Origin: Enterobacteria phage vB_EcoM_IME341
Sequence record: MH051917
DNA length: 64,000 nt
Direction: 5' to 3' (one strand)
The translations under genes were made by a program, and so were the position numbers. The notes below the pieces were generated by a model. The model was not told where the DNA came from. It ran no database searches and saw nothing but the letters and a program-made list of their open reading frames with translations. Positions 1 through 9,354 of this stretch are shown here, in pieces. Position 1 is the stretch's first letter; the number at the start of each line of letters is the position of its first letter.

Positions 1-202
1 TGCATCAGCTAACACGTATTATGACCCACAGATTTTTCCAAAAGGAAAAGTTCCGATGTCTGTAATGCTTGATGACCTGCTATATTTCTGGTATTATGGC
101 GGAAAAAATCTCTATTATCACAATACCCGTGATGGTTCTGGTACTGACGATTACGAAATCGAAACTCCTAAAGCCGACGATTGTGCAGCATGTAAGCTTT
201 AA
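1..202 (+). CDS. nrdA: Ribonucleotide reductase large subunit NrdA, C-terminal fragment (5' end outside window)
   Basis: Open frame from the window edge translates to ...YYDPQIFPKGKVPMSVMLDDLLYFWYYGGKNLYYHNTRDGSGTDDYEIETPKADDCAACKL*, matching the class Ia NrdA C-terminal tail with its Cys pair; lies directly upstream of nrdB as in T4. Confidence 0.85.
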   Translation, partial: ASANTYYDPQIFPKGKVPMSVMLDDLLYFWYYGGKNLYYHNTRDGSGTDDYEIETPKADDCAACKL

Positions 203-225
203 TAAAATCTGATTATAATTGACTC

Positions 226-1395
226 ATGGATGAGTCACTAACAAATGAGAATAATATGTCTACAGTTTTTAATACCACCCCAGTTGATGTTTTAGTCGAA
301 CCGATGTTCTTTGGTTCAGGATTGGGTATTGCTCGTTATGATATCCAACGTCATAAAGTATTCGAAGAGCTTTGTGAAAAGCAGTTGAGTTTTTTCTGGC
401 GTCCAGAAGAAGTCAACTTGATGATGGATGCTGCTCAATTTAATAAGCTTCCACAGTTCCAACAAAATATTTTTACAAATAACCTGAAGTATCAATCACT
501 TCTGGATAGTATCCAAGGACGTGCTCCTTCTGCTGCACTCCAAGCCTTGATTTCAGACCCTAGCCTTGATACTTGGGTGGCAACATGGACCTTTAGTGAA
601 ACCATTCACTCTCGTTCATATACCCATATCATGCGTAACCTCTATACAGACCCATCTAAGGTATTTGATGAAATTCTGTTAGATGACGCTATCATGAAAC
701 GGGCTGAATCTATTGGTCGTTATTATGATGATGTCATTGAGAAAACTCGCCTTTATCAGAATGCTTTAGAAGAATATCATGAGTTTAGCGAAGGCGTAAA
801 ACAGGCCAAATACGAACTAATGCGTTCTCTTTATCTTTGCCTGCATGTAATCAACGCCCTAGAAGCTATTCGTTTTTATGTATCTTTTGCATGTACCTTT
901 AACTTCCATAAAAACATGGAAATCATGGAAGGTAATGCTAAGATTATGAAGTTCATTGCACGTGATGAACAGCTCCACCTTAAAGGCACCCAGTACATTA
1001 TTCGTCAGCTTCAACTTGGTACTGATGGCGACGAATGGGTTAAAATTGCTCAAGAGTGTGAACAGGAAGCGGTTGATATTTTCATGGAAGTTAACCGTCA
1101 AGAAAAAGAATGGGCCGCCCACCTGTTCAAAGATGGTACTTGCCCTGGATTAAATACTCAGAACATGGGTGCTTTTGTCGATTACCTGACAGTTTCTCGT
1201 ATGAAGCAATGTGGCTTACCGTGTCCTATTACTGATGCTCCTACTCGCCATCCTTATCCTTGGATTCGCGAATACCTGAACTCTGATGCTGTACAGGCTG
1301 CTCCTCAGGAAGTGGAAATCAGTTCTTACCTTGTAGCACAAATTGATAACGATGTTGATGAAAAAGTAATGGCATCGTACAAGAAATATTTTTAA
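226..1395 (+). CDS. nrdB: Ribonucleotide reductase small subunit NrdB, uninterrupted
   Basis: 389-aa ORF highly similar to remembered T4 NrdB (388 aa), including the iron-ligand region; the single continuous frame shows no intron. Confidence 0.95.
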   Translation: MDESLTNENNMSTVFNTTPVDVLVEPMFFGSGLGIARYDIQRHKVFEELCEKQLSFFWRPEEVNLMMDAAQFNKLPQFQQNIFTNNLKYQSLLDSIQGRAPSAALQALISDPSLDTWVATWTFSETIHSRSYTHIMRNLYTDPSKVFDEILLDDAIMKRAESIGRYYDDVIEKTRLYQNALEEYHEFSEGVKQAKYELMRSLYLCLHVINALEAIRFYVSFACTFNFHKNMEIMEGNAKIMKFIARDEQLHLKGTQYIIRQLQLGTDGDEWVKIAQECEQEAVDIFMEVNRQEKEWAAHLFKDGTCPGLNTQNMGAFVDYLTVSRMKQCGLPCPITDAPTRHPYPWIREYLNSDAVQAAPQEVEISSYLVAQIDNDVDEKVMASYKKYF

Positions 1396-1400
1396 GGAAT

Positions 1401-1414
1401 GGGGCTTCGGCCCC
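1401..1414 (+). other. GC hairpin (GGGGC-TTCG-GCCCC) in the nrdB-denA intercistronic space
   Basis: Perfect 5-bp GC stem with UUCG tetraloop 6 nt after the nrdB stop; no T-run, so more likely an RNA processing or stability element than a terminator. Confidence 0.5.
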
Positions 1415-1422
1415 TTATTGCT

Positions 1423-1836
1423 ATGAAAGAAATCGCAGACGAATTTAGCTTTATCAAGTACGTCACCCTAGAACTCCAAGATGACGCCACCATAGCTCCA
1501 CTCACAGTACCAAATAAACAAAATGTCATATATGCTATAGCGGTTGATGATATACTAGTCTACATCGGGAAGACTAAAAATCTTCGTAAGCGCATCAACT
1601 ACTACCGAACCGCTATTAATCGTAAGGACCAAACGTCAGATTCGACTAAGTCCATTCTGATTCATGAAGCATTAATGGCAGGTAAAAAGGTAGAGTTCTA
1701 TGCACGGCAGTGCTTTAATCTGTCGATGACTAACGAACTTGGAACTATGTCAGTTGAGACCATGTCTCTTGAAGAGCCAATGTTCATAAAGAAATTTAAT
1801 CCACCTTGGAATACCCAACATAGGATAAAGCAATGA
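1423..1836 (+). CDS. denA: Endonuclease II (DenA), GIY-YIG family
   Basis: Translation from the second Met (MKEIADEFSFIKY...VIYAIAVDDILVYIGKTKNLRKRINYYRTAINRKD...) carries a GIY-x9-YIG motif and matches remembered T4 EndoII in sequence, size and position between nrdB and rnlA. The track start at 1399 would place the first codons in a GC hairpin. Confidence 0.8.
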   Translation: MKEIADEFSFIKYVTLELQDDATIAPLTVPNKQNVIYAIAVDDILVYIGKTKNLRKRINYYRTAINRKDQTSDSTKSILIHEALMAGKKVEFYARQCFNLSMTNELGTMSVETMSLEEPMFIKKFNPPWNTQHRIKQ

Positions 1837-2981
1837 TTGAATTATATGATAACTTGATGGCCCTGGTTAAAAACTCGACTAAATCTAAGTTCTTCTTTAA
1901 AGACTTTCAGAGTGCGCTAGGAGTCAACTATCGCATCTTTAGTTATAACTATGCATCGTACAGTGATTGGTTGGAAGACGGCGCCCTAGAGTGTCGAGGC
2001 ATTATGTTTGAAATGGACGAGAATGGTCCGGTACGTATTGCTGCTCGTCCTATGCAAAAGTTCTTTAACCTCGACGAAAACCCTATGACTATCGGTCTGG
2101 ACTTGTCGCCAGAAAATATCGACCTCGTAATGGCTAAGGAAGATGGTTCTCTGATTTCTACATTCATGGACCGACAGTATCTTTCTGTTAAATCTAAAGG
2201 CTCTATCCATTCGTCAATGGTGCACGATTCTTTACGTTTCCTTCGTCTCCCTGAGAACGAGGCTTTTGCCGCACGTCTAGAAGAAATCACCAAAGCCGGG
2301 TATACCTGCAACCTTGAATATGTCGCACCTACCAACCGTATCGTGCTGGCTTACCAAGAAACGAACCTCATCCTGTTAAACGTTCGTAATAATGAAACAG
2401 GTGAGTATATTCCATATGCTGAACTGTTTAAGGACGGCGCGCTGCGTAAGCATTTGGTTGAAAGTTATGACCTCACCGAAGGTGATTTCGTAGAAAACAT
2501 CCGTAAACAAGAGGGTATTGAAGGTTTTATCTTTGTACTGAAAGATGGTACGTTCTTTAAACTCAAAACTGCATGGTACAGTGCACTGCATCATACCAAA
2601 GATTCCATTAACAATAACGAACGTTTGTTTGAAGTTGTAGTGGCGGGTGGAACTGATGACCTTCGTGGTCTGTTCAGTACAGATTCGTTTGCTATCGAGA
2701 AAATCGATGCCTTCGAACGTATCCATTTAGATTACTTAGAACAATCATTGGCTTTGTTGGAAGCAGCTTACTCTCAACTCAAGGGCCGCGACCGTAAAGA
2801 CTACGCTGTTACTGGACAGCTAATCCTTAAGGACTTCCCAGGGTTGTTCTCTATTCTTATGCAGGCGTACGTAGGCGGTATTAATTATGATACGGTTGTA
2901 GACCAGATTAACTCTGTGTTCTTGAAAAACCATAAAGCCCAAATCCCTGAAAAATATTTGAAAGAAATTGCGGTAGAGTAG
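1833..2981 (+). CDS. rnlA: RNA ligase 1 (gene 63)
   Basis: 382 aa; strong similarity to T4 Rnl1 (e.g. YRIFSYNYASYSDWLEDGALECRGIMFEMDENGPVRIAARPMQKFFNL, KEDGSL lysine-adenylation motif, FVAPTNRIVLAYQE); ATGA overlap with the denA stop. Confidence 0.95.
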   Translation: MIELYDNLMALVKNSTKSKFFFKDFQSALGVNYRIFSYNYASYSDWLEDGALECRGIMFEMDENGPVRIAARPMQKFFNLDENPMTIGLDLSPENIDLVMAKEDGSLISTFMDRQYLSVKSKGSIHSSMVHDSLRFLRLPENEAFAARLEEITKAGYTCNLEYVAPTNRIVLAYQETNLILLNVRNNETGEYIPYAELFKDGALRKHLVESYDLTEGDFVENIRKQEGIEGFIFVLKDGTFFKLKTAWYSALHHTKDSINNNERLFEVVVAGGTDDLRGLFSTDSFAIEKIDAFERIHLDYLEQSLALLEAAYSQLKGRDRKDYAVTGQLILKDFPGLFSILMQAYVGGINYDTVVDQINSVFLKNHKAQIPEKYLKEIAVE

Positions 2982-3009
2982 TTTACATCTCCTCATGATG
3001 TGTTAGTAT
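2981..3009 (+). promoter_or_regulatory. Early (sigma70-type) promoter upstream of the Alc-sized ORF
   Basis: GTTTAC -35, 17-nt spacer, TAGTAT -10, followed by a CATGAGGAG leader. Confidence 0.5.
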
Positions 3010-3039
3010 AGACTTACCAACTAATGAGGAGAAAACAAA

Positions 3040-3540
3040 ATGAATATGCAAATGATTACTAACGAAATGGTTGTTAAGGCTTTTGGTGACTCTACTGACG
3101 GTATCCAAGTTTTTAAAGGTTCTCGTGCAGTAGGTTACCTGACCGATCTTCGTGTTACTTTAGCTAAAAATGCTAAAAAGAAAATCAAGCAAAAAGAATA
3201 CTCTACCCGTTATGCAGAAGAAAAGCGTGAAGCCATGCCTGAAGCTGTTAACTCTATGGTTGAGTTTCTCCAAAACAACCTTTCCAAGTACGATGCCGAG
3301 GTATTCATTAATATTAGCCAACCTAATGTTAAAATCTCAGGCATCACTTTCTATTTGATTTGTGACCCATTAAGCGACAAGTTTAATCGCCTTGGCATTT
3401 CAAGTCCTTACCATACCGCTGAAGAATTATGTTTTATGTTCGAAACGTACAAAATTCAGTGCGAAAATCCTAAAACGGTTCTTATTAATTCCCTGTCACG
3501 TGATGACATCATCGAGATTATTACCAAATGTCTAAATTAA
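3040..3540 (+). CDS. Hypothetical early protein; candidate Alc homologue by position and size only
   Basis: 166-aa ORF with GAGGAG Shine-Dalgarno immediately after rnlA; T4 has the 167-aa alc gene at this position. I cannot verify sequence similarity from memory. Confidence 0.5.
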   Translation: MNMQMITNEMVVKAFGDSTDGIQVFKGSRAVGYLTDLRVTLAKNAKKKIKQKEYSTRYAEEKREAMPEAVNSMVEFLQNNLSKYDAEVFINISQPNVKISGITFYLICDPLSDKFNRLGISSPYHTAEELCFMFETYKIQCENPKTVLINSLSRDDIIEIITKCLN

Positions 3541-3881
3541 GTATTTACCTTTTAGCTGGAGCCATTGCAGTAGGTGCTTACGGTTTTATTTCGTATCAAT
3601 CAAGTCGTATTGATACCCTTACTGAAGAACTGAAAACTACCCAGCAAACGGCCAAACAGAATGCCGAAGCCGTGGATGACCTACGTGGCCAATACTCGGA
3701 TATTGAATTCCGCACTACTGAAATGAATGCCCGATTGGATAAAATTAAGGTAGAAAATGAAAAGCTCCGTAAAGATTCGAAGAAGGCGCACGTGGTGGCA
3801 AGTAAGCCAGGACTGGTCGAAAAACAAATCAACAAGTCCTTCGATTCCTTTACAGAAGACTTCAGGAGCATTACAGAATGA
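3528..3881 (+). CDS. i-spanin (Rz-like, T4 PseT.3 equivalent)
   Basis: 117 aa; N-terminal transmembrane helix (LSIYLLAGAIAVGAYGFISY) followed by a charged coiled-coil periplasmic domain; immediately precedes a lipoprotein ORF. Confidence 0.75.
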   Translation: MSKLSIYLLAGAIAVGAYGFISYQSSRIDTLTEELKTTQQTAKQNAEAVDDLRGQYSDIEFRTTEMNARLDKIKVENEKLRKDSKKAHVVASKPGLVEKQINKSFDSFTEDFRSITE

Positions 3882-4168
3882 TTAAATTATCTGTAGTAGT
3901 ATTATCTATTGGCATGTTAGTTGGATGTGCCCAGGACATCCCTGTAGTGCCTAAGCAACAACTGCATCCTTCATGGCCACAACCTATTGCCGAACATAAT
4001 GTTAAGTGGCAGGTTAAGGTAATCGACGGTAAGGCCTGGGTTGGAATGCCGTTTGAAGATTCCCAAGAACATCGTATTTGGTTGAATGACGTAAAAAGAT
4101 ATGTACAAGACCAGAAATCTATGTTATGTTATTATCGTTCCGGGTTAAAAGAGGAGAAGTGCAAATGA
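3878..4168 (+). CDS. o-spanin (Rz1-like outer-membrane lipoprotein, T4 PseT.2 equivalent)
   Basis: 96 aa; signal peptide with lipobox (SIGMLVGC|AQ), proline-rich mature region; ATGA overlap with the i-spanin stop. Confidence 0.75.
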   Translation: MIKLSVVVLSIGMLVGCAQDIPVVPKQQLHPSWPQPIAEHNVKWQVKVIDGKAWVGMPFEDSQEHRIWLNDVKRYVQDQKSMLCYYRSGLKEEKCK

Positions 4169-4269
4169 TTGAGTGTAGTCTTGGTTGGGATGCCGTTAGA
4201 TTAGCTATCGCATTCTTTTGCTTCGGGATTGCGTTCAGTATGTGTATTGATGGTCTTTTTGGAAAGTAG
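4165..4269 (+). CDS. Possible 34-aa hydrophobic peptide translationally coupled to the o-spanin
   Basis: ATG overlaps the o-spanin stop (ATGA); MIECSLGWDAVRLAIAFFCFGIAFSMCIDGLFGK has one predicted transmembrane segment. Below the ORF-track size cutoff. Confidence 0.3.
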   Translation: MIECSLGWDAVRLAIAFFCFGIAFSMCIDGLFGK

Positions 4270-4298
4270 TTTACAAACTCTTGGGAGCAGAGTATAAT
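4269..4298 (+). promoter_or_regulatory. Early promoter, canonical T4 type
   Basis: GTTTAC-N17-gTATAAT. Confidence 0.65.
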
Positions 4299-4333
4299 GC
4301 TCCTACGGATTATAAAAAATTGAGGAAATTATT

Positions 4334-4812
4334 ATGACTTTACGTGATAACAGTTTTGTGGCTAAGCCTGAATACATTTCAGGTGTTAAATCTCCTGCAT
4401 TACAAAAGCTCCTTAAGCTAGGGTCCTGTGCAAGTACACCACTTGAAAAGAAGGCAACTTTCGATTTTGCTTGGGCTATGGTAGACGGTATTGATGTAGT
4501 AAGACAGGTAACTTTTTATGCTCCAGGGTCTATTGAGCCTTCGCAGATTATTAATTTGGATGGAAGTAATTATATTACCATCCAACAATGGTATCGTATG
4601 ATGCGCCCGGTTTGGGAATACCCTGAATTCGTTGAAGAATATAATGAAAAAGAACGTATTCGTGAATTGGTGAAAAGTTTTGAATATGCGGCTAAACGCC
4701 ATGGTCAAATGCAATCCGCAGTAACCCTTGGCGATGTTCCTGAAAGTGTTGCTTACGAATCAGGTAAAACCCTTAAAACTTGCCGTGAAGAACTTTATAA
4801 GGAACTTGGCGT

Positions 4813-4816
<4 letters not shown>
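4334..4816 (+). CDS. Hypothetical early protein (pseT.1-region ORF)
   Basis: 160-aa ORF downstream of a canonical early promoter (GTTTAC-N17-TATAAT at about 4269-4298) with an AGGAAA Shine-Dalgarno. Confidence 0.6.
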
Positions 4817-6016
<1,200 letters not shown>

Positions 6017-6017
<1 letters not shown>

Positions 6018-6214
6018 TGAATAATATCGAAAAGATTTTTCGTACAATCGAAGAAATTGAAAAACGTAAATGCTTTTTCTTCGGCGTATGGCCTTTAACT
6101 GATGGACGTATTGGCCTGGATGTTATGGACTATAAAGATGAAGACAAGGTCGATGGTGGTATTTTTAAATCCGCTCCTGAACTCCTTGCCTTCTTGGAAG
6201 AACATTATGTATAA
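6017..6214 (+). CDS. Hypothetical small protein (cd.x-region ORF)
   Basis: ATG overlaps the pseT stop (TAATG); 65 aa from the internal Met of track ORF 5987..6214. Confidence 0.45.
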
Positions 6215-6422
6215 CAAACACCATGAAGTTGAAGAAGAAGCTTATAAAGAGCTTCAGAAACTGGTAGGTCAGAATATGTCTCCTACCCTCATTAACTCAC
6301 TAGCGGCCCTTCGTAATGACCTCAACGAACGTTACAAAGGCGAGTACTATGTTGAGTTTGTTCCTCTGACTGAAGTCGTTGACCGGTTTATTGTTAACGT
6401 GAAGGTCCATACAGTACACTGA
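6207..6422 (+). CDS. Hypothetical small protein
   Basis: Internal ATG of track ORF 6102..6422 positioned at the upstream stop; 71 aa. Confidence 0.45.
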   Translation: MYNKHHEVEEEAYKELQKLVGQNMSPTLINSLAALRNDLNERYKGEYYVEFVPLTEVVDRFIVNVKVHTVH

Positions 6423-6429
6423 GGTAATT

Positions 6430-6708
6430 ATGTTCCCCACTTATTCTCAAATTGTTAAAACCGTTTTTAGTCAGATTGTATCTGATTATCTATACGAAAC
6501 CGTCGACGTGTCGACTGAACTAAAAGTGCACGGACGTTTGTCTGCTATTCTGGAAATCATGTTCCCAGATGCAGTTGATGCAATCACTGTTCAACTCACG
6601 CCTGGTGCAGCATTTGCAATTGTTCCATTTAAAATTGATAACCACATTTTGGCTATTTCATGCAAAATGGACTTCCAGAAACAAACGGTAGTTGTCGAAG
6701 CAATTTAA
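6430..6708 (+). CDS. Hypothetical protein
   Basis: 92-aa ORF, tightly packed, GAGG upstream. Confidence 0.5.
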   Translation: MFPTYSQIVKTVFSQIVSDYLYETVDVSTELKVHGRLSAILEIMFPDAVDAITVQLTPGAAFAIVPFKIDNHILAISCKMDFQKQTVVVEAI

Positions 6709-6710
6709 GT

Positions 6711-6740
6711 GTTTACTTTCACCAAGGACGGTGATATGAT
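6711..6740 (+). promoter_or_regulatory. Early promoter-like element
   Basis: GTTTAC-N17-aTATGAT upstream of ORF 6771. Confidence 0.45.
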
Positions 6741-6770
6741 GACCTTACCGAAACAAATGAGGAAATCGAA

Positions 6771-7325
6771 ATGAGTAAGTTCTTTGAAGAGCGTAAGTTT
6801 TACAAGTTCGTTGGTGAATACACTAAAAACAAATTCACTAATAACGGTGCTTATGGCCTCAATACAGCTTTTGCTAAGTATGTGGGTATGAATCCGTTTG
6901 AAGTTGAAATTGATTACCATAATGGGCGTGAACGTGTAAGCCGAATTCGCGTATATGACGAGATGATGTTTGTCGACCCGAGCAAAATGACAGGTAATCC
7001 TGACGATGCAAATAGTGTTCTTTTTAATTCAGCGGGCTTTTTTAGCCATGAATTCGAATACTTTATCGAAGTGGTAGACCCTAAAGAAGTGCAGTTAGTT
7101 TTCCAGAACCCTGAAATCAAACCTATTAAAACTCCAGCCGATTGGAAAGTGCTTATTGTTAAAAATGGTAAGATTGAAGTTCATTCTCGCCATAACACAA
7201 AGGAACAAGCCGATCGTCAGGCTGAAGAGCTTTTGACCAGTTCGTTCCAACAAGTGTGTTATATTGTTAAAGGCGATGTTACCCAAGCTACCACTACCAA
7301 ACAACTTAAGTTGGAGACAATCTAA
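6771..7325 (+). CDS. Hypothetical protein
   Basis: 184-aa ORF with GAGGAAA Shine-Dalgarno; an early promoter-like GTTTAC-N17-TATGAT lies at about 6711-6740. Confidence 0.6.
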   Translation: MSKFFEERKFYKFVGEYTKNKFTNNGAYGLNTAFAKYVGMNPFEVEIDYHNGRERVSRIRVYDEMMFVDPSKMTGNPDDANSVLFNSAGFFSHEFEYFIEVVDPKEVQLVFQNPEIKPIKTPADWKVLIVKNGKIEVHSRHNTKEQADRQAEELLTSSFQQVCYIVKGDVTQATTTKQLKLETI

Positions 7326-7561
7326 TGCTGAGCGAAAACCCTATTACTGTAGAGCAGTTCCACGTTAAAGTTAAAGAATTTGCTCAGGCCCTGATTAATA
7401 AGGTTTCTGTACGTTTTCCTGATGCAACTCTGCGAGTAATTCAGGAATCACCGCGTGCGGTATTGGTTATCGTTAATCCTAAAGACGGCGACCAGATTAC
7501 CCAATTGAAACTTGGTTCTGATGGTCTGGTCGAAGCACAGCGGGTTTATATTGATGCTTAA
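7325..7561 (+). CDS. Hypothetical protein
   Basis: 78-aa ORF; start overlaps the upstream stop (TAATG). Confidence 0.5.
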   Translation: MLSENPITVEQFHVKVKEFAQALINKVSVRFPDATLRVIQESPRAVLVIVNPKDGDQITQLKLGSDGLVEAQRVYIDA

Positions 7562-7892
7562 TTTAAAACTAGCAGTTAATGCCACCTTACAATCTGACGA
7601 AGACGGAGACCATCGAGGTCTCTCTGAAAAGGCTACTCAGTACATCAAAGACCTTTTTAAACTGAGTGAAGATTTCCAAAGCATCCATACTTCAACATAT
7701 GATGCTGTGCTGGCTACTGTTCTTCCGGTTGAAATTGGTGATCGAATTCCGGCGGCGGTATTTTTCGATAAACAAAAACGCTTCCCAGACGGTTATGGTA
7801 TATTAACCTCACGTGTGAAATCTATCACTAAACTTCGTACCGATTTATATCGTGTCGAAACCAATAATACAGCTTATCTAGTGGTGATGTAA
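7554..7892 (+). CDS. Hypothetical protein
   Basis: Internal ATG of track ORF 7512..7892 overlapping the upstream stop; about 112 aa; ends at the cd start. Confidence 0.45.
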   Translation: MLNLKLAVNATLQSDEDGDHRGLSEKATQYIKDLFKLSEDFQSIHTSTYDAVLATVLPVEIGDRIPAAVFFDKQKRFPDGYGILTSRVKSITKLRTDLYRVETNNTAYLVVM

Positions 7893-8437
7893 TGAAAGCA
7901 AGCACATACCTTCAGATTGCATATCTGATTTCTCAAGAATCAAAATGTTGTTCATGGAAAGTGGGTGCGGTTATCGAAAAGAATGGTCGCATTATCTCTA
8001 CAGGCTATAACGGTTCACCGTCTGGTGGTGTTAACTGTTGTGACCACGCTGTAGAACAGGACTGGACTCGTGTTGTGTATGACCCAGCTCGAATGTCGCA
8101 TAAATCCGTTCTTCTTAAAGAACACCGTATGGCTCACGCTGCATGGTCATCTAAAAATGAAATCCATGCTGAACTGAATGCTATTTTGTTTGCAGCTCGT
8201 ACCGGAAGTTCTATTGATGGCGCTACGATGTACGTGACGTTATCTCCGTGCGCTGATTGTGCTAAGTCTATTGCGCAGTCTGGAATTAAAACATTGGTTT
8301 ATGCTGAGCTCTATGACCGAAATCCTGAAGGTTGGGACGATATCCTCCGTGAATCAGGCATCGAAGTTATCCAGTATAATCGTACAGGGCTCCGTTCTTT
8401 GAACTGGGAATCAATTCAAAACTATTGTGGTGAATAA
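7892..8437 (+). CDS. cd: dCMP deaminase
   Basis: 181 aa, close match to T4 Cd: zinc-binding HAELNAI and SPCADCA motifs; N-terminal MKASTYLQIAYLISQESKCCSWKVGAVIEKNGRIISTGYNG. Confidence 0.95.
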   Translation: MKASTYLQIAYLISQESKCCSWKVGAVIEKNGRIISTGYNGSPSGGVNCCDHAVEQDWTRVVYDPARMSHKSVLLKEHRMAHAAWSSKNEIHAELNAILFAARTGSSIDGATMYVTLSPCADCAKSIAQSGIKTLVYAELYDRNPEGWDDILRESGIEVIQYNRTGLRSLNWESIQNYCGE

Positions 8438-8670
8438 TGAAATTTCGTCTAGTTAAGTTTTCAGGTCTGAACTCAAAAGGTGAAAACCTGGTAGCCTATT
8501 CAGTAGAATACAAAAAGTACTTTTTCTCTCGATGGAAATCGTACTATAAATCCGAGTGGGTTTATGCCAACATGAATTACAAAACAGTACCTATTCTTGA
8601 AAATTGCCATAGTCTATTAAGAGCTCTAAAAGAGCGTAATGCAACCACTATTAAAACTATTCTGGAATAA
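8437..8670 (+). CDS. Hypothetical protein (31.2-position ORF)
   Basis: 77-aa ORF; TAATG overlap with the cd stop. Confidence 0.5.
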   Translation: MKFRLVKFSGLNSKGENLVAYSVEYKKYFFSRWKSYYKSEWVYANMNYKTVPILENCHSLLRALKERNATTIKTILE

Positions 8671-8672
8671 TT

Positions 8673-8972
8673 ATGATTTTAACTGAACAAGAAACAATTC
8701 GTCTCCGTGAAAAAGTCAAGACTATTTTGTCTGTTGGTTTTCACGAAGTCCTGTTTGAAAAAGCCGATGGTAGTGCCCGTCGTATGACTTGCACACGTGA
8801 CTTAGACCTGCTGCCGTATAAAGAAGTCCAGGCCCCTGGGCCAGAAGCCAATAAAGAACCTGTTAATTATATCAGAGTATTTGATACCAAGGCCAATGAT
8901 TGGCGCTCATTCCGTTTCGATAAGCTGATTTCTGTTAACGGCCTTCAGTCCGAAACTCTGCTTGTCCTGTAA
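8673..8972 (+). CDS. Hypothetical protein (31.1-position ORF)
   Basis: 99-aa ORF immediately downstream. Confidence 0.5.
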   Translation: MILTEQETIRLREKVKTILSVGFHEVLFEKADGSARRMTCTRDLDLLPYKEVQAPGPEANKEPVNYIRVFDTKANDWRSFRFDKLISVNGLQSETLLVL

Positions 8973-9030
8973 TATGCTTTAAGAATAGCGTGTTATTATT
9001 AATCTATCAACAAAACAATATGGATTAAAT

Positions 9031-9354
9031 ATGGAACTTCCTATTAAAGCGGTCGGAGAATATGTTATTCTCGTTTCCGAACCAAAACAAGCTGGTGATG
9101 AAGAAACTACTGCATCTGGTATCGTTATTGGTAAACTTCACCAAGGTGAAATCCCTGAACTTTGTGAAATTTATTCTGTAGGACCTGATGTCCCTGAAGG
9201 TTTTTGTGAAGTAGGCGATTTGACTCCACTTCCTGTTGGTAAGATTGCTAACGTGCCTCATCCGTTGGTTGCATTGGGTATTAAGCAGCCTAAAGAAATT
9301 AAACAGAAATTCGTTACCTGCCACTATAAAGCAATTCCTTGCTTGTATAAATAA
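9031..9354 (+). CDS. 31: Gp31 co-chaperonin (GroES-like) for capsid protein folding
   Basis: 107 aa; near-identical to T4 gp31 over [22 protein letters not shown]...PELC...[21 protein letters not shown]...[32 protein letters not shown]. Confidence 0.95.

Follow-up and report, generated by a model that had tools for sequence, protein, structure and literature searches.

In Enterobacteria phage vB_EcoM_IME341, a reading frame of only 34 codons opens on the stop codon of the o-spanin gene. This raises two questions: whether so short a frame is a gene at all and, if so, whether its place behind the two spanin genes makes its product a component of lysis. The window analysed here is a stretch of 64,000 nucleotides of this phage (sequence record MH051917). 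A first-pass annotation, made from the letters alone, had described the frame as a possible membrane peptide with one transmembrane helix, translationally coupled to the spanin pair and perhaps able to modulate lysis timing.

The locus and its signals

The record closest to the window over positions 3500-5200 is that of Escherichia phage IME08 (Dhakavirus), with 96.6% identity. Between positions 1 and 8500, the plus strand carries nrdB, a GIY-YIG ORF in the position of denA, rnlA, alc, pseT.3, pseT.2 and the small ORF, followed on the same strand by two genes of unknown function, pseT, small ORFs and cd, which is the gene order of the T4 early region. The two genes upstream of the small ORF had been taken for spanin genes, and their profile matches bear this out, phrog_739 for the i-spanin and phrog_812 for the o-spanin (Table 1); the Phage_T4_Spanin family (PF26831) was also found on the o-spanin homolog of one compared locus (L032). 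Further upstream, the 145-aa ORF between nrdB and rnlA (1399-1836) matches the GIY-YIG domain with 23.0 bits (Pfam cut-off 22.6) and, since it occupies the position of T4 denA (endonuclease II), it is probably a denA homolog and not a homing endonuclease.

Table 1 Features of the peptide gene and its surroundings, with positions in the window unless another record is named
Feature	Position	Strand	Basis or remark
i-spanin gene, pseT.3 homolog, 117 aa	3528-3881	+	phrog_739, Rz-like spanin, E=5.6e-37; pseT.3 in the IME08 annotation
o-spanin gene, pseT.2 homolog, 96 aa	3878-4168	+	phrog_812, E=2e-43; lipobox LVGC
Shine-Dalgarno sequence GAGGAG	4151-4156	+	8 nt 5' of the small-ORF ATG, within the last o-spanin codons (KEEKCK)
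Small ORF, 34 codons counted to the TAG stop	4165-4269	+	encodes MIECSLGWDAVRLAIAFFCFGIAFSMCIDGLFGK; PHROG 23289
Predicted membrane-spanning helix, codons 13-33	4201-4263	+	hydropathy, per-position conservation, AlphaFold2 helix 3-32
T4-early-type sigma-70 promoter TTTACA-17-TATAAT	4270-4298	+	11/12 matches; serves the next gene (4334-4816)
Winklervirus 33-aa ORF	845-946 in L009 (Serratia phage LC53); 697-798 in L030 (Virsaitis27 ORF236)		

The ATG of the small ORF (4165-4167) shares bases with the o-spanin TGA (4166-4168), forming the ATGA overlap that had been reported at this place, and the 34-codon frame that it opens ends at a TAG (4267-4269). The same start/stop overlap is present in all 25 Dhakavirus and Gaprivervirus loci compared. 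In phage VR25 (L006, just upstream of 3001) it spans 8 nt instead of the usual 4, the o-spanin frame reading two codons longer there (…CHD*). The Shine-Dalgarno (SD) sequence is equally constant, being GAGGAG, GAGGGG or GAGGAA in 25 out of 25 T-even loci. An overlapping stop and start together with a strong SD inside the upstream gene are what is expected of a translationally coupled pair, so that, as judged from sequence, the geometry for the proposed coupling to the o-spanin gene is in place. A longer frame of 47 aa, starting at the ATG at 4126, was rejected as the gene because conservation is limited to the 34-aa part with its MIE/MNE N-terminus, and the same is true of Kuravirus despite its different upstream sequence.

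The frame had also been said to end just before an early promoter. Its stop codon indeed adjoins one, which begins at the very next base, 4270; this is the best promoter-like site in positions 2900-5200, and an early promoter is conserved 3' of the peptide gene in relatives. The T4 late-promoter motif TATAAATA is absent from the plus strand over positions 1-9345, its first occurrence being at 9346, which suggests that the spanin pair and the peptide gene are expressed from early or middle promoters alone. Early or middle expression of the peptide gene is what these sigma-70-type promoters, the lack of a late motif up to 9346 and the early-region context of the Kuravirus copies described below point to. 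The segment between the promoter and pseT (4334-5112) has a modular make-up: this slot holds a 160-aa gene (phrog_4482) and a 99-aa gene (phrog_2364) in the window, a single 111-aa gene in LHE83, AnYang and Bp7, a 118-aa gene in SP18 and fDHCT2, and only pseT.1 in T4. The peptide allele is independent of this downstream module, as fDHCT2 has the peptide of the window followed by a different gene.

Coding evidence, family and predicted structure

A 34-codon ORF means little by itself in this A+T-rich DNA, since the first 8 kb contain 88 ORFs of at least 25 aa, and the matter was therefore settled by comparison with relatives. The peptide was found full-length by tblastn in 85 phage records, and 29 extracted loci plus the window made up a comparison set of 30 loci. 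The frame is open in all 30, with 34-35 codons; they comprise 29 different nucleotide sequences that encode 22 different peptides, and the length differences among them are of whole codons only. Selection tests on 27 sequences from Dhakavirus, Gaprivervirus and Kuravirus gave no internal stop in the peptide frame vs 47 and 63 in the other two, and a pooled pN/pS of 0.31 vs 1.08 and 0.98 (in-frame estimates overall, 0.31-0.33); variable alignment columns numbered 15, 17 and 31 at codon positions 1, 2 and 3, respectively. Between Kuravirus and T-even copies synonymous differences are saturated (pS 0.66-0.86) while pN is 0.07-0.17, and the peptide genes of TH57 and 172-1 differ by 16 synonymous and 6 non-synonymous changes. 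Conservation of the frame in related phages, measured by synonymous vs non-synonymous change, had been set beforehand as the check on the proposed gene; with 30 of 30 loci open, a pN/pS of 0.31 and a predicted helix (see below), the proposal of a small hydrophobic single-helix peptide made from a genuine coding frame stood up to it. We regard the small ORF as almost certainly a real coding gene. An apparent truncation in phage CUA3 (PP410321.1) was rejected as a frameshift: its partial tblastn match is due to a run of 30 Ns inside the ORF in the record (L029, about 842-871), the frame being otherwise intact.

The frame could nevertheless be devoid of protein function, being open by chance, through constraint on the sequence upstream of the promoter or on RNA, or because the act of translation alone matters (e.g., to avoid polarity). 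The shortness of the ORF, its 3' end adjoining a promoter and the many chance ORFs of similar size in the window would fit with this, but purifying selection is specific to the one frame (pN/pS close to 1 in the others), and Kuravirus encodes the same peptide with saturated synonymous differences at a place where no promoter follows. Moreover, positions 3800-4500 have no Rfam match and the RNA fold of the locus is unremarkable (z=-1.24). The comparative data have already largely refuted this explanation, which we consider very improbable.

The peptide is already catalogued, as a member of the uncharacterised phage family PHROG 23289. Its residues 1-34 align with positions 1-35 of the 35-position profile (E=1e-11, 45.6 bits), and the alleles of the window, LHE83 and Kuravirus all match it over their full length (E=1e-11 to 1.5e-15), with the same length and the same conserved FCFGI...C...G.FGK pattern. 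The Winklervirus homolog described below, by contrast, falls below this profile, although it matches the HMM built in this analysis. No match to the peptide was found in Pfam, NCBIfam or PDB sequences, and hence no homolog of known function in these collections, and a profile search of all PDB chain sequences was empty for E values up to 10. When 1.84 billion representatives were searched exhaustively with HMMER, one 34-aa relative (P0001) and one artefact came up; P0001, which was also the only relative found with the 47-aa in-frame extension as query, is encoded on two short Logan contigs that resemble Dhakavirus and keep the gene order seen here. The artefact (P0002, 1553 aa) consists of repeated Cys/Phe/Leu-rich units that match through 23 short stretches (E=3.6e-14) and was rejected as a low-complexity false positive. 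Scans of GTDB (185,579 bacterial and archaeal species genomes) and of the JGI metagenomes gave no homolog and no copy, respectively, IMG/VR returned known isolates only, and a literature search found no paper on this peptide.

The single transmembrane helix initially suggested is borne out as a prediction. Kyte-Doolittle hydropathy (19-residue window) peaks at 2.16 over residues 10-28, and AlphaFold2, run on the single sequence, models one helix over residues 3-32 (mean pLDDT 85). According to these predictions, the peptide is very probably a membrane-inserted single helix, presumably located in the inner membrane; its charges leave the topology ambiguous, and beyond the one predicted transmembrane domain (TMD) its C-terminal tail is reduced to Gly-Lys. 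Invariant or near-invariant residues are M1, E3, C4, G7, W8, D9, R12, the block F18-C19-F20-G21-I22, C27, G30 and F32-G33-K34, among which C19, F20 and G21 of the FCFGI block, G30 and G33 are strictly invariant and C27 nearly so. At position 29, a polar residue (Q, H, N or D) is found in all but one of the 22 distinct peptides, the exception having Gly, and the N-terminal Cys is present in 20 of the 22, being absent in Winklervirus. A single conserved helix face was considered and rejected (moment 0.05, permutation p=0.55); since the conserved residues lie off any single face, a simple one-sided helix-helix interface is not indicated.

Placement and exchange among phages

In Dhakavirus and Gaprivervirus, the peptide gene without exception starts on the o-spanin stop and is followed immediately by the early promoter. 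Its placement is different in two other groups. In the Kuraviruses 172-1 and NJ01, which are podoviruses of ~77 kb, an unannotated copy sits among small genes of the early region with phrog_1972 and phrog_8294 as neighbours and no spanin gene beside it. Comparison with two Kuraviruses that have no copy, pEC-N1203-2Af.1 and CHD5UKE1 (L034 and L035), revealed a precise 117-bp insertion in 172-1 (L003, 943-1076) and NJ01 (L007), bounded by a duplicated ribosome site and start codon, TTGAGGTTAA(T/CT)ATG, such that the ORF was inserted between the ATG of the downstream gene and its second codon. This duplication suggests that a single ORF was transferred by recombination at translation-initiation microhomology in Kuravirus, and the insertion would illustrate how single small ORFs can move between phage genomes.

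The Winklerviruses LC53, Kc304 and Virsaitis27 encode a diverged homolog, MNEIYFLTGLELLRTIIASVCFGIAFTLCTQGIWK, for which an HMM built from the other members gave 27.4 bits, whereas 2000 composition-preserving shuffles scored 0.5 on average and 14.1 at most. Its neighbours are a phrog_4482 gene on one side and a pseT.1-like gene on the other; it is two genes removed from the spanins and does not follow the o-spanin gene. In LC53 it has ATGA overlaps on both sides. A different, almost entirely hydrophobic ORF of 33 aa (Table 1) has a GTG start, overlaps the 3' end of the Winklervirus o-spanin gene and is followed by a hairpin. Its score against the peptide family (12.2 bits, reached by 2 of 2000 shuffles) is weak, and it could have arisen by chance or be another small membrane gene occupying this slot. 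T4 has no such peptide gene at all, pseT.2 being followed by the gene of the soluble 75-aa PseT.1.

The peptide gene is also far more variable than its surroundings. In nine Dhakaviruses, the ORF is 71-82% identical to that of the window, vs 92-98% in the flanks (spanin genes and promoter), and within this genus the peptide has a pS of 0.48 and a pN of 0.146, vs 0.25 and 0.022 for the o-spanin. With a pN/pS of 0.30, it is still under purifying selection. Exchange between genera is apparent from MX01 (Dhakavirus) and SP18 (Gaprivervirus), for which the pS of the peptide is 0.05 and the o-spanin values are pS 0.58 and pN 0.24; at 5 of 24 loci, the nearest allele belongs to the other genus. Peptide distances show a weak correlation with those of the o-spanin (Mantel r=0.31, p=0.002). 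Judging from these distances, the exchange of peptide alleles between genera is independent of the spanin genes. The peptide gene is an independent, mobile and unusually variable cassette.

Possible roles of the peptide

The reading that we favour, and hold to be reasonably likely as a whole, is that this PHROG 23289 micro-gene encodes a micro-protein that is made early, spans the inner membrane once and plays an autonomous accessory part. Early or middle promoters would drive transcription of the gene together with the alc-pseT.3-pseT.2 unit, its translation would start from its own strong SD, probably helped by ribosomes terminating at the overlapping o-spanin stop, and the resulting peptide of ~34 residues would insert into the inner membrane as one helix. 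It would be an autonomous accessory cassette and not a spanin subunit, because the gene moves between unrelated phage lineages, has different neighbours there and is more variable than its flanks while under purifying selection; we think it probable that it is such an accessory gene, and neither a lysis gene nor a spanin partner. Early in infection, the peptide might use helix-helix contacts to bind or perturb a membrane protein, be it from the host or from a competing phage, with the exclusion of a superinfecting phage or the evasion of a membrane-based defence as possible outcomes. Old alleles, transfer across lineages and an early membrane protein form the pattern expected of accessory genes in conflicts, phage-host or phage-phage, which makes this class of role the likeliest candidate, proposed here tentatively and at rather less than even probability. 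The fuller version of it is doubtful: a mobile, hypervariable conflict determinant that blocks a superinfecting phage or a membrane-based defence, whose old allele classes would be kept by frequency-dependent selection and whose bare ORF would hop between Straboviridae and Kuravirus at duplicated RBS/start-codon microhomologies.

The first-pass annotation had instead attached the peptide to a lysis cassette. Seen in that way, it would be a third spanin or lysis component, held by coupling at a fixed ratio with the o-spanin, that tunes lysis timing or spanin activation, possibly via the TMD of the i-spanin, or by way of the peptide's N-terminal cysteine together with the two cysteines that are essential in PseT.2. 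The ATGA (or 8-nt) overlap in 25 of 25 Dhakavirus/Gaprivervirus loci and the same position in 85 records speak for this, as so constant a place at the o-spanin stop, seen in about 85 T-even genomes, could stem from a functional tie; so do the N-terminal Cys of most distinct peptides, the positive, albeit weak, Mantel correlation with the o-spanin and the different hydrophobic 33-aa ORF over the 3' end of the Winklervirus o-spanin gene. However, the Kuravirus and Winklervirus copies lie away from the spanins, the Winklervirus homolog lacks the N-terminal Cys, and the alleles cross genera independently of the o-spanin, a history at odds with the constant co-occurrence and co-evolution of an obligate spanin partner. 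T4 does without the peptide, yet its PseT.3 and PseT.2 alone complement lambda Rz/Rz1, and the T4-type spanin pair is not in any cassette with holin and endolysin genes (PMC6139136). Placement in Kuravirus and Winklervirus, absence from T4 and the crossing of alleles all indicate that the adjacency in Dhakavirus is positional. Membership of a lysis cassette was thus not upheld, and beyond adjacency nothing was found for a role in lysis timing, which we consider unlikely. The peptide itself does not look like a spanin: it has 34 residues, no periplasmic domain, signal peptide or lipobox and no spanin PHROG match. Set beside holins and antiholins, it has one TMD and a tail of Gly-Lys only, with no Pfam holin match and no endolysin or holin gene near it.

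Another possibility is that the autonomous accessory cassette acts on the bilayer itself, forming small oligomeric pores or depolarising the membrane in the manner of type I toxins (Hok, TisB) or of a minimal holin, and serving host shut-off or a back-up lysis trigger. Its size and hydrophobicity are like those of type I toxins, its autonomy as a cassette speaks for this as well, and conservation over all helix faces, with G21, G30 and G33 invariant, fits with tight self-packing. Against this, T-even infection needs an energised membrane until holin triggering, so that an early depolariser would be harmful; the peptide also lacks the charged C-terminal tail typical of holins and has no similarity to known toxin or holin families (Pfam, NCBIfam, PDB). 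An action on the bilayer therefore seems quite improbable to us.

Several known systems help to place an autonomous accessory peptide of this kind. The T4 lysis-inhibition accessory proteins RI and RIII, and antiholins in general, are, like the peptide under the lysis hypothesis, small phage proteins able to change lysis timing. RI (97 aa) acts via a periplasmic domain that binds the holin T, and RIII (82 aa) resides in the cytoplasm. Both are more than a lone helix of 34 residues, neither is encoded beside the spanins (rIII is ~4 kb from the T4 spanin genes), and neither has sequence similarity to the peptide. The T4 proteins Imm (83 aa) and Sp (97 aa) are small, early, inner-membrane or periplasm-facing T-even proteins involved in phage-phage conflict and would be comparable in expression class and compartment, but they are larger and no sequence similarity to them was found. 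Bacteria also possess small membrane regulators (AcrZ, MgrB, MgtS, CydX) and type I toxins (Hok, TisB, Ldr), peptides of 20-50 residues that cross the membrane once and modulate either larger proteins within it or the membrane itself. These are chromosomal, whereas the phage peptide has no homolog in the 185,579 species genomes scanned, and no antisense RNA partner of its gene is evident, with no Rfam RNA in positions 3800-4500. The nearest likeness in size is LysM/SglM of the ssRNA phage M, a single-helix membrane peptide of 37 residues that wedges into the lipid II flippase MurJ and blocks it (PMC12506998), which shows that even so small a peptide can act on a specific target in the membrane. 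LysM is a lytic effector of an ssRNA phage, while the peptide studied here is an accessory gene product of a phage with holin, endolysin and spanins, and the profile search of all PDB chains (E up to 10) revealed no sequence relation to LysM/SglM or any other Sgl. If the peptide does have a specific membrane target, it would join the few known phage peptides of similar size with defined targets, and this could account for the variability of these 105 bp, the highest in a region that is otherwise conserved.

Whatever its role, the peptide gene deserves to be included in annotations. Genes shorter than the usual cut-off are overlooked systematically, and frame-specific selection, seen here in three phage groups, offers a clean template for validating such micro-genes. 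The peptide is annotated as a 'hypothetical protein' in LHE83, WG01, ABTNLsp5, dhaeg, UGJNEcP3, UP19, NC-G, MX01 and fDHCT2, the last being identical to that of the window, and is unannotated in the closest relative IME08 as well as in KIT01, AnYang, JS98-type records and others. In two GenBank records, OM386655.1 (ESCO10) and PP693301.1 (P8), the label 'thioredoxin' is given to genes of this region, the one that covers the peptide among them; this looks like an annotation error.
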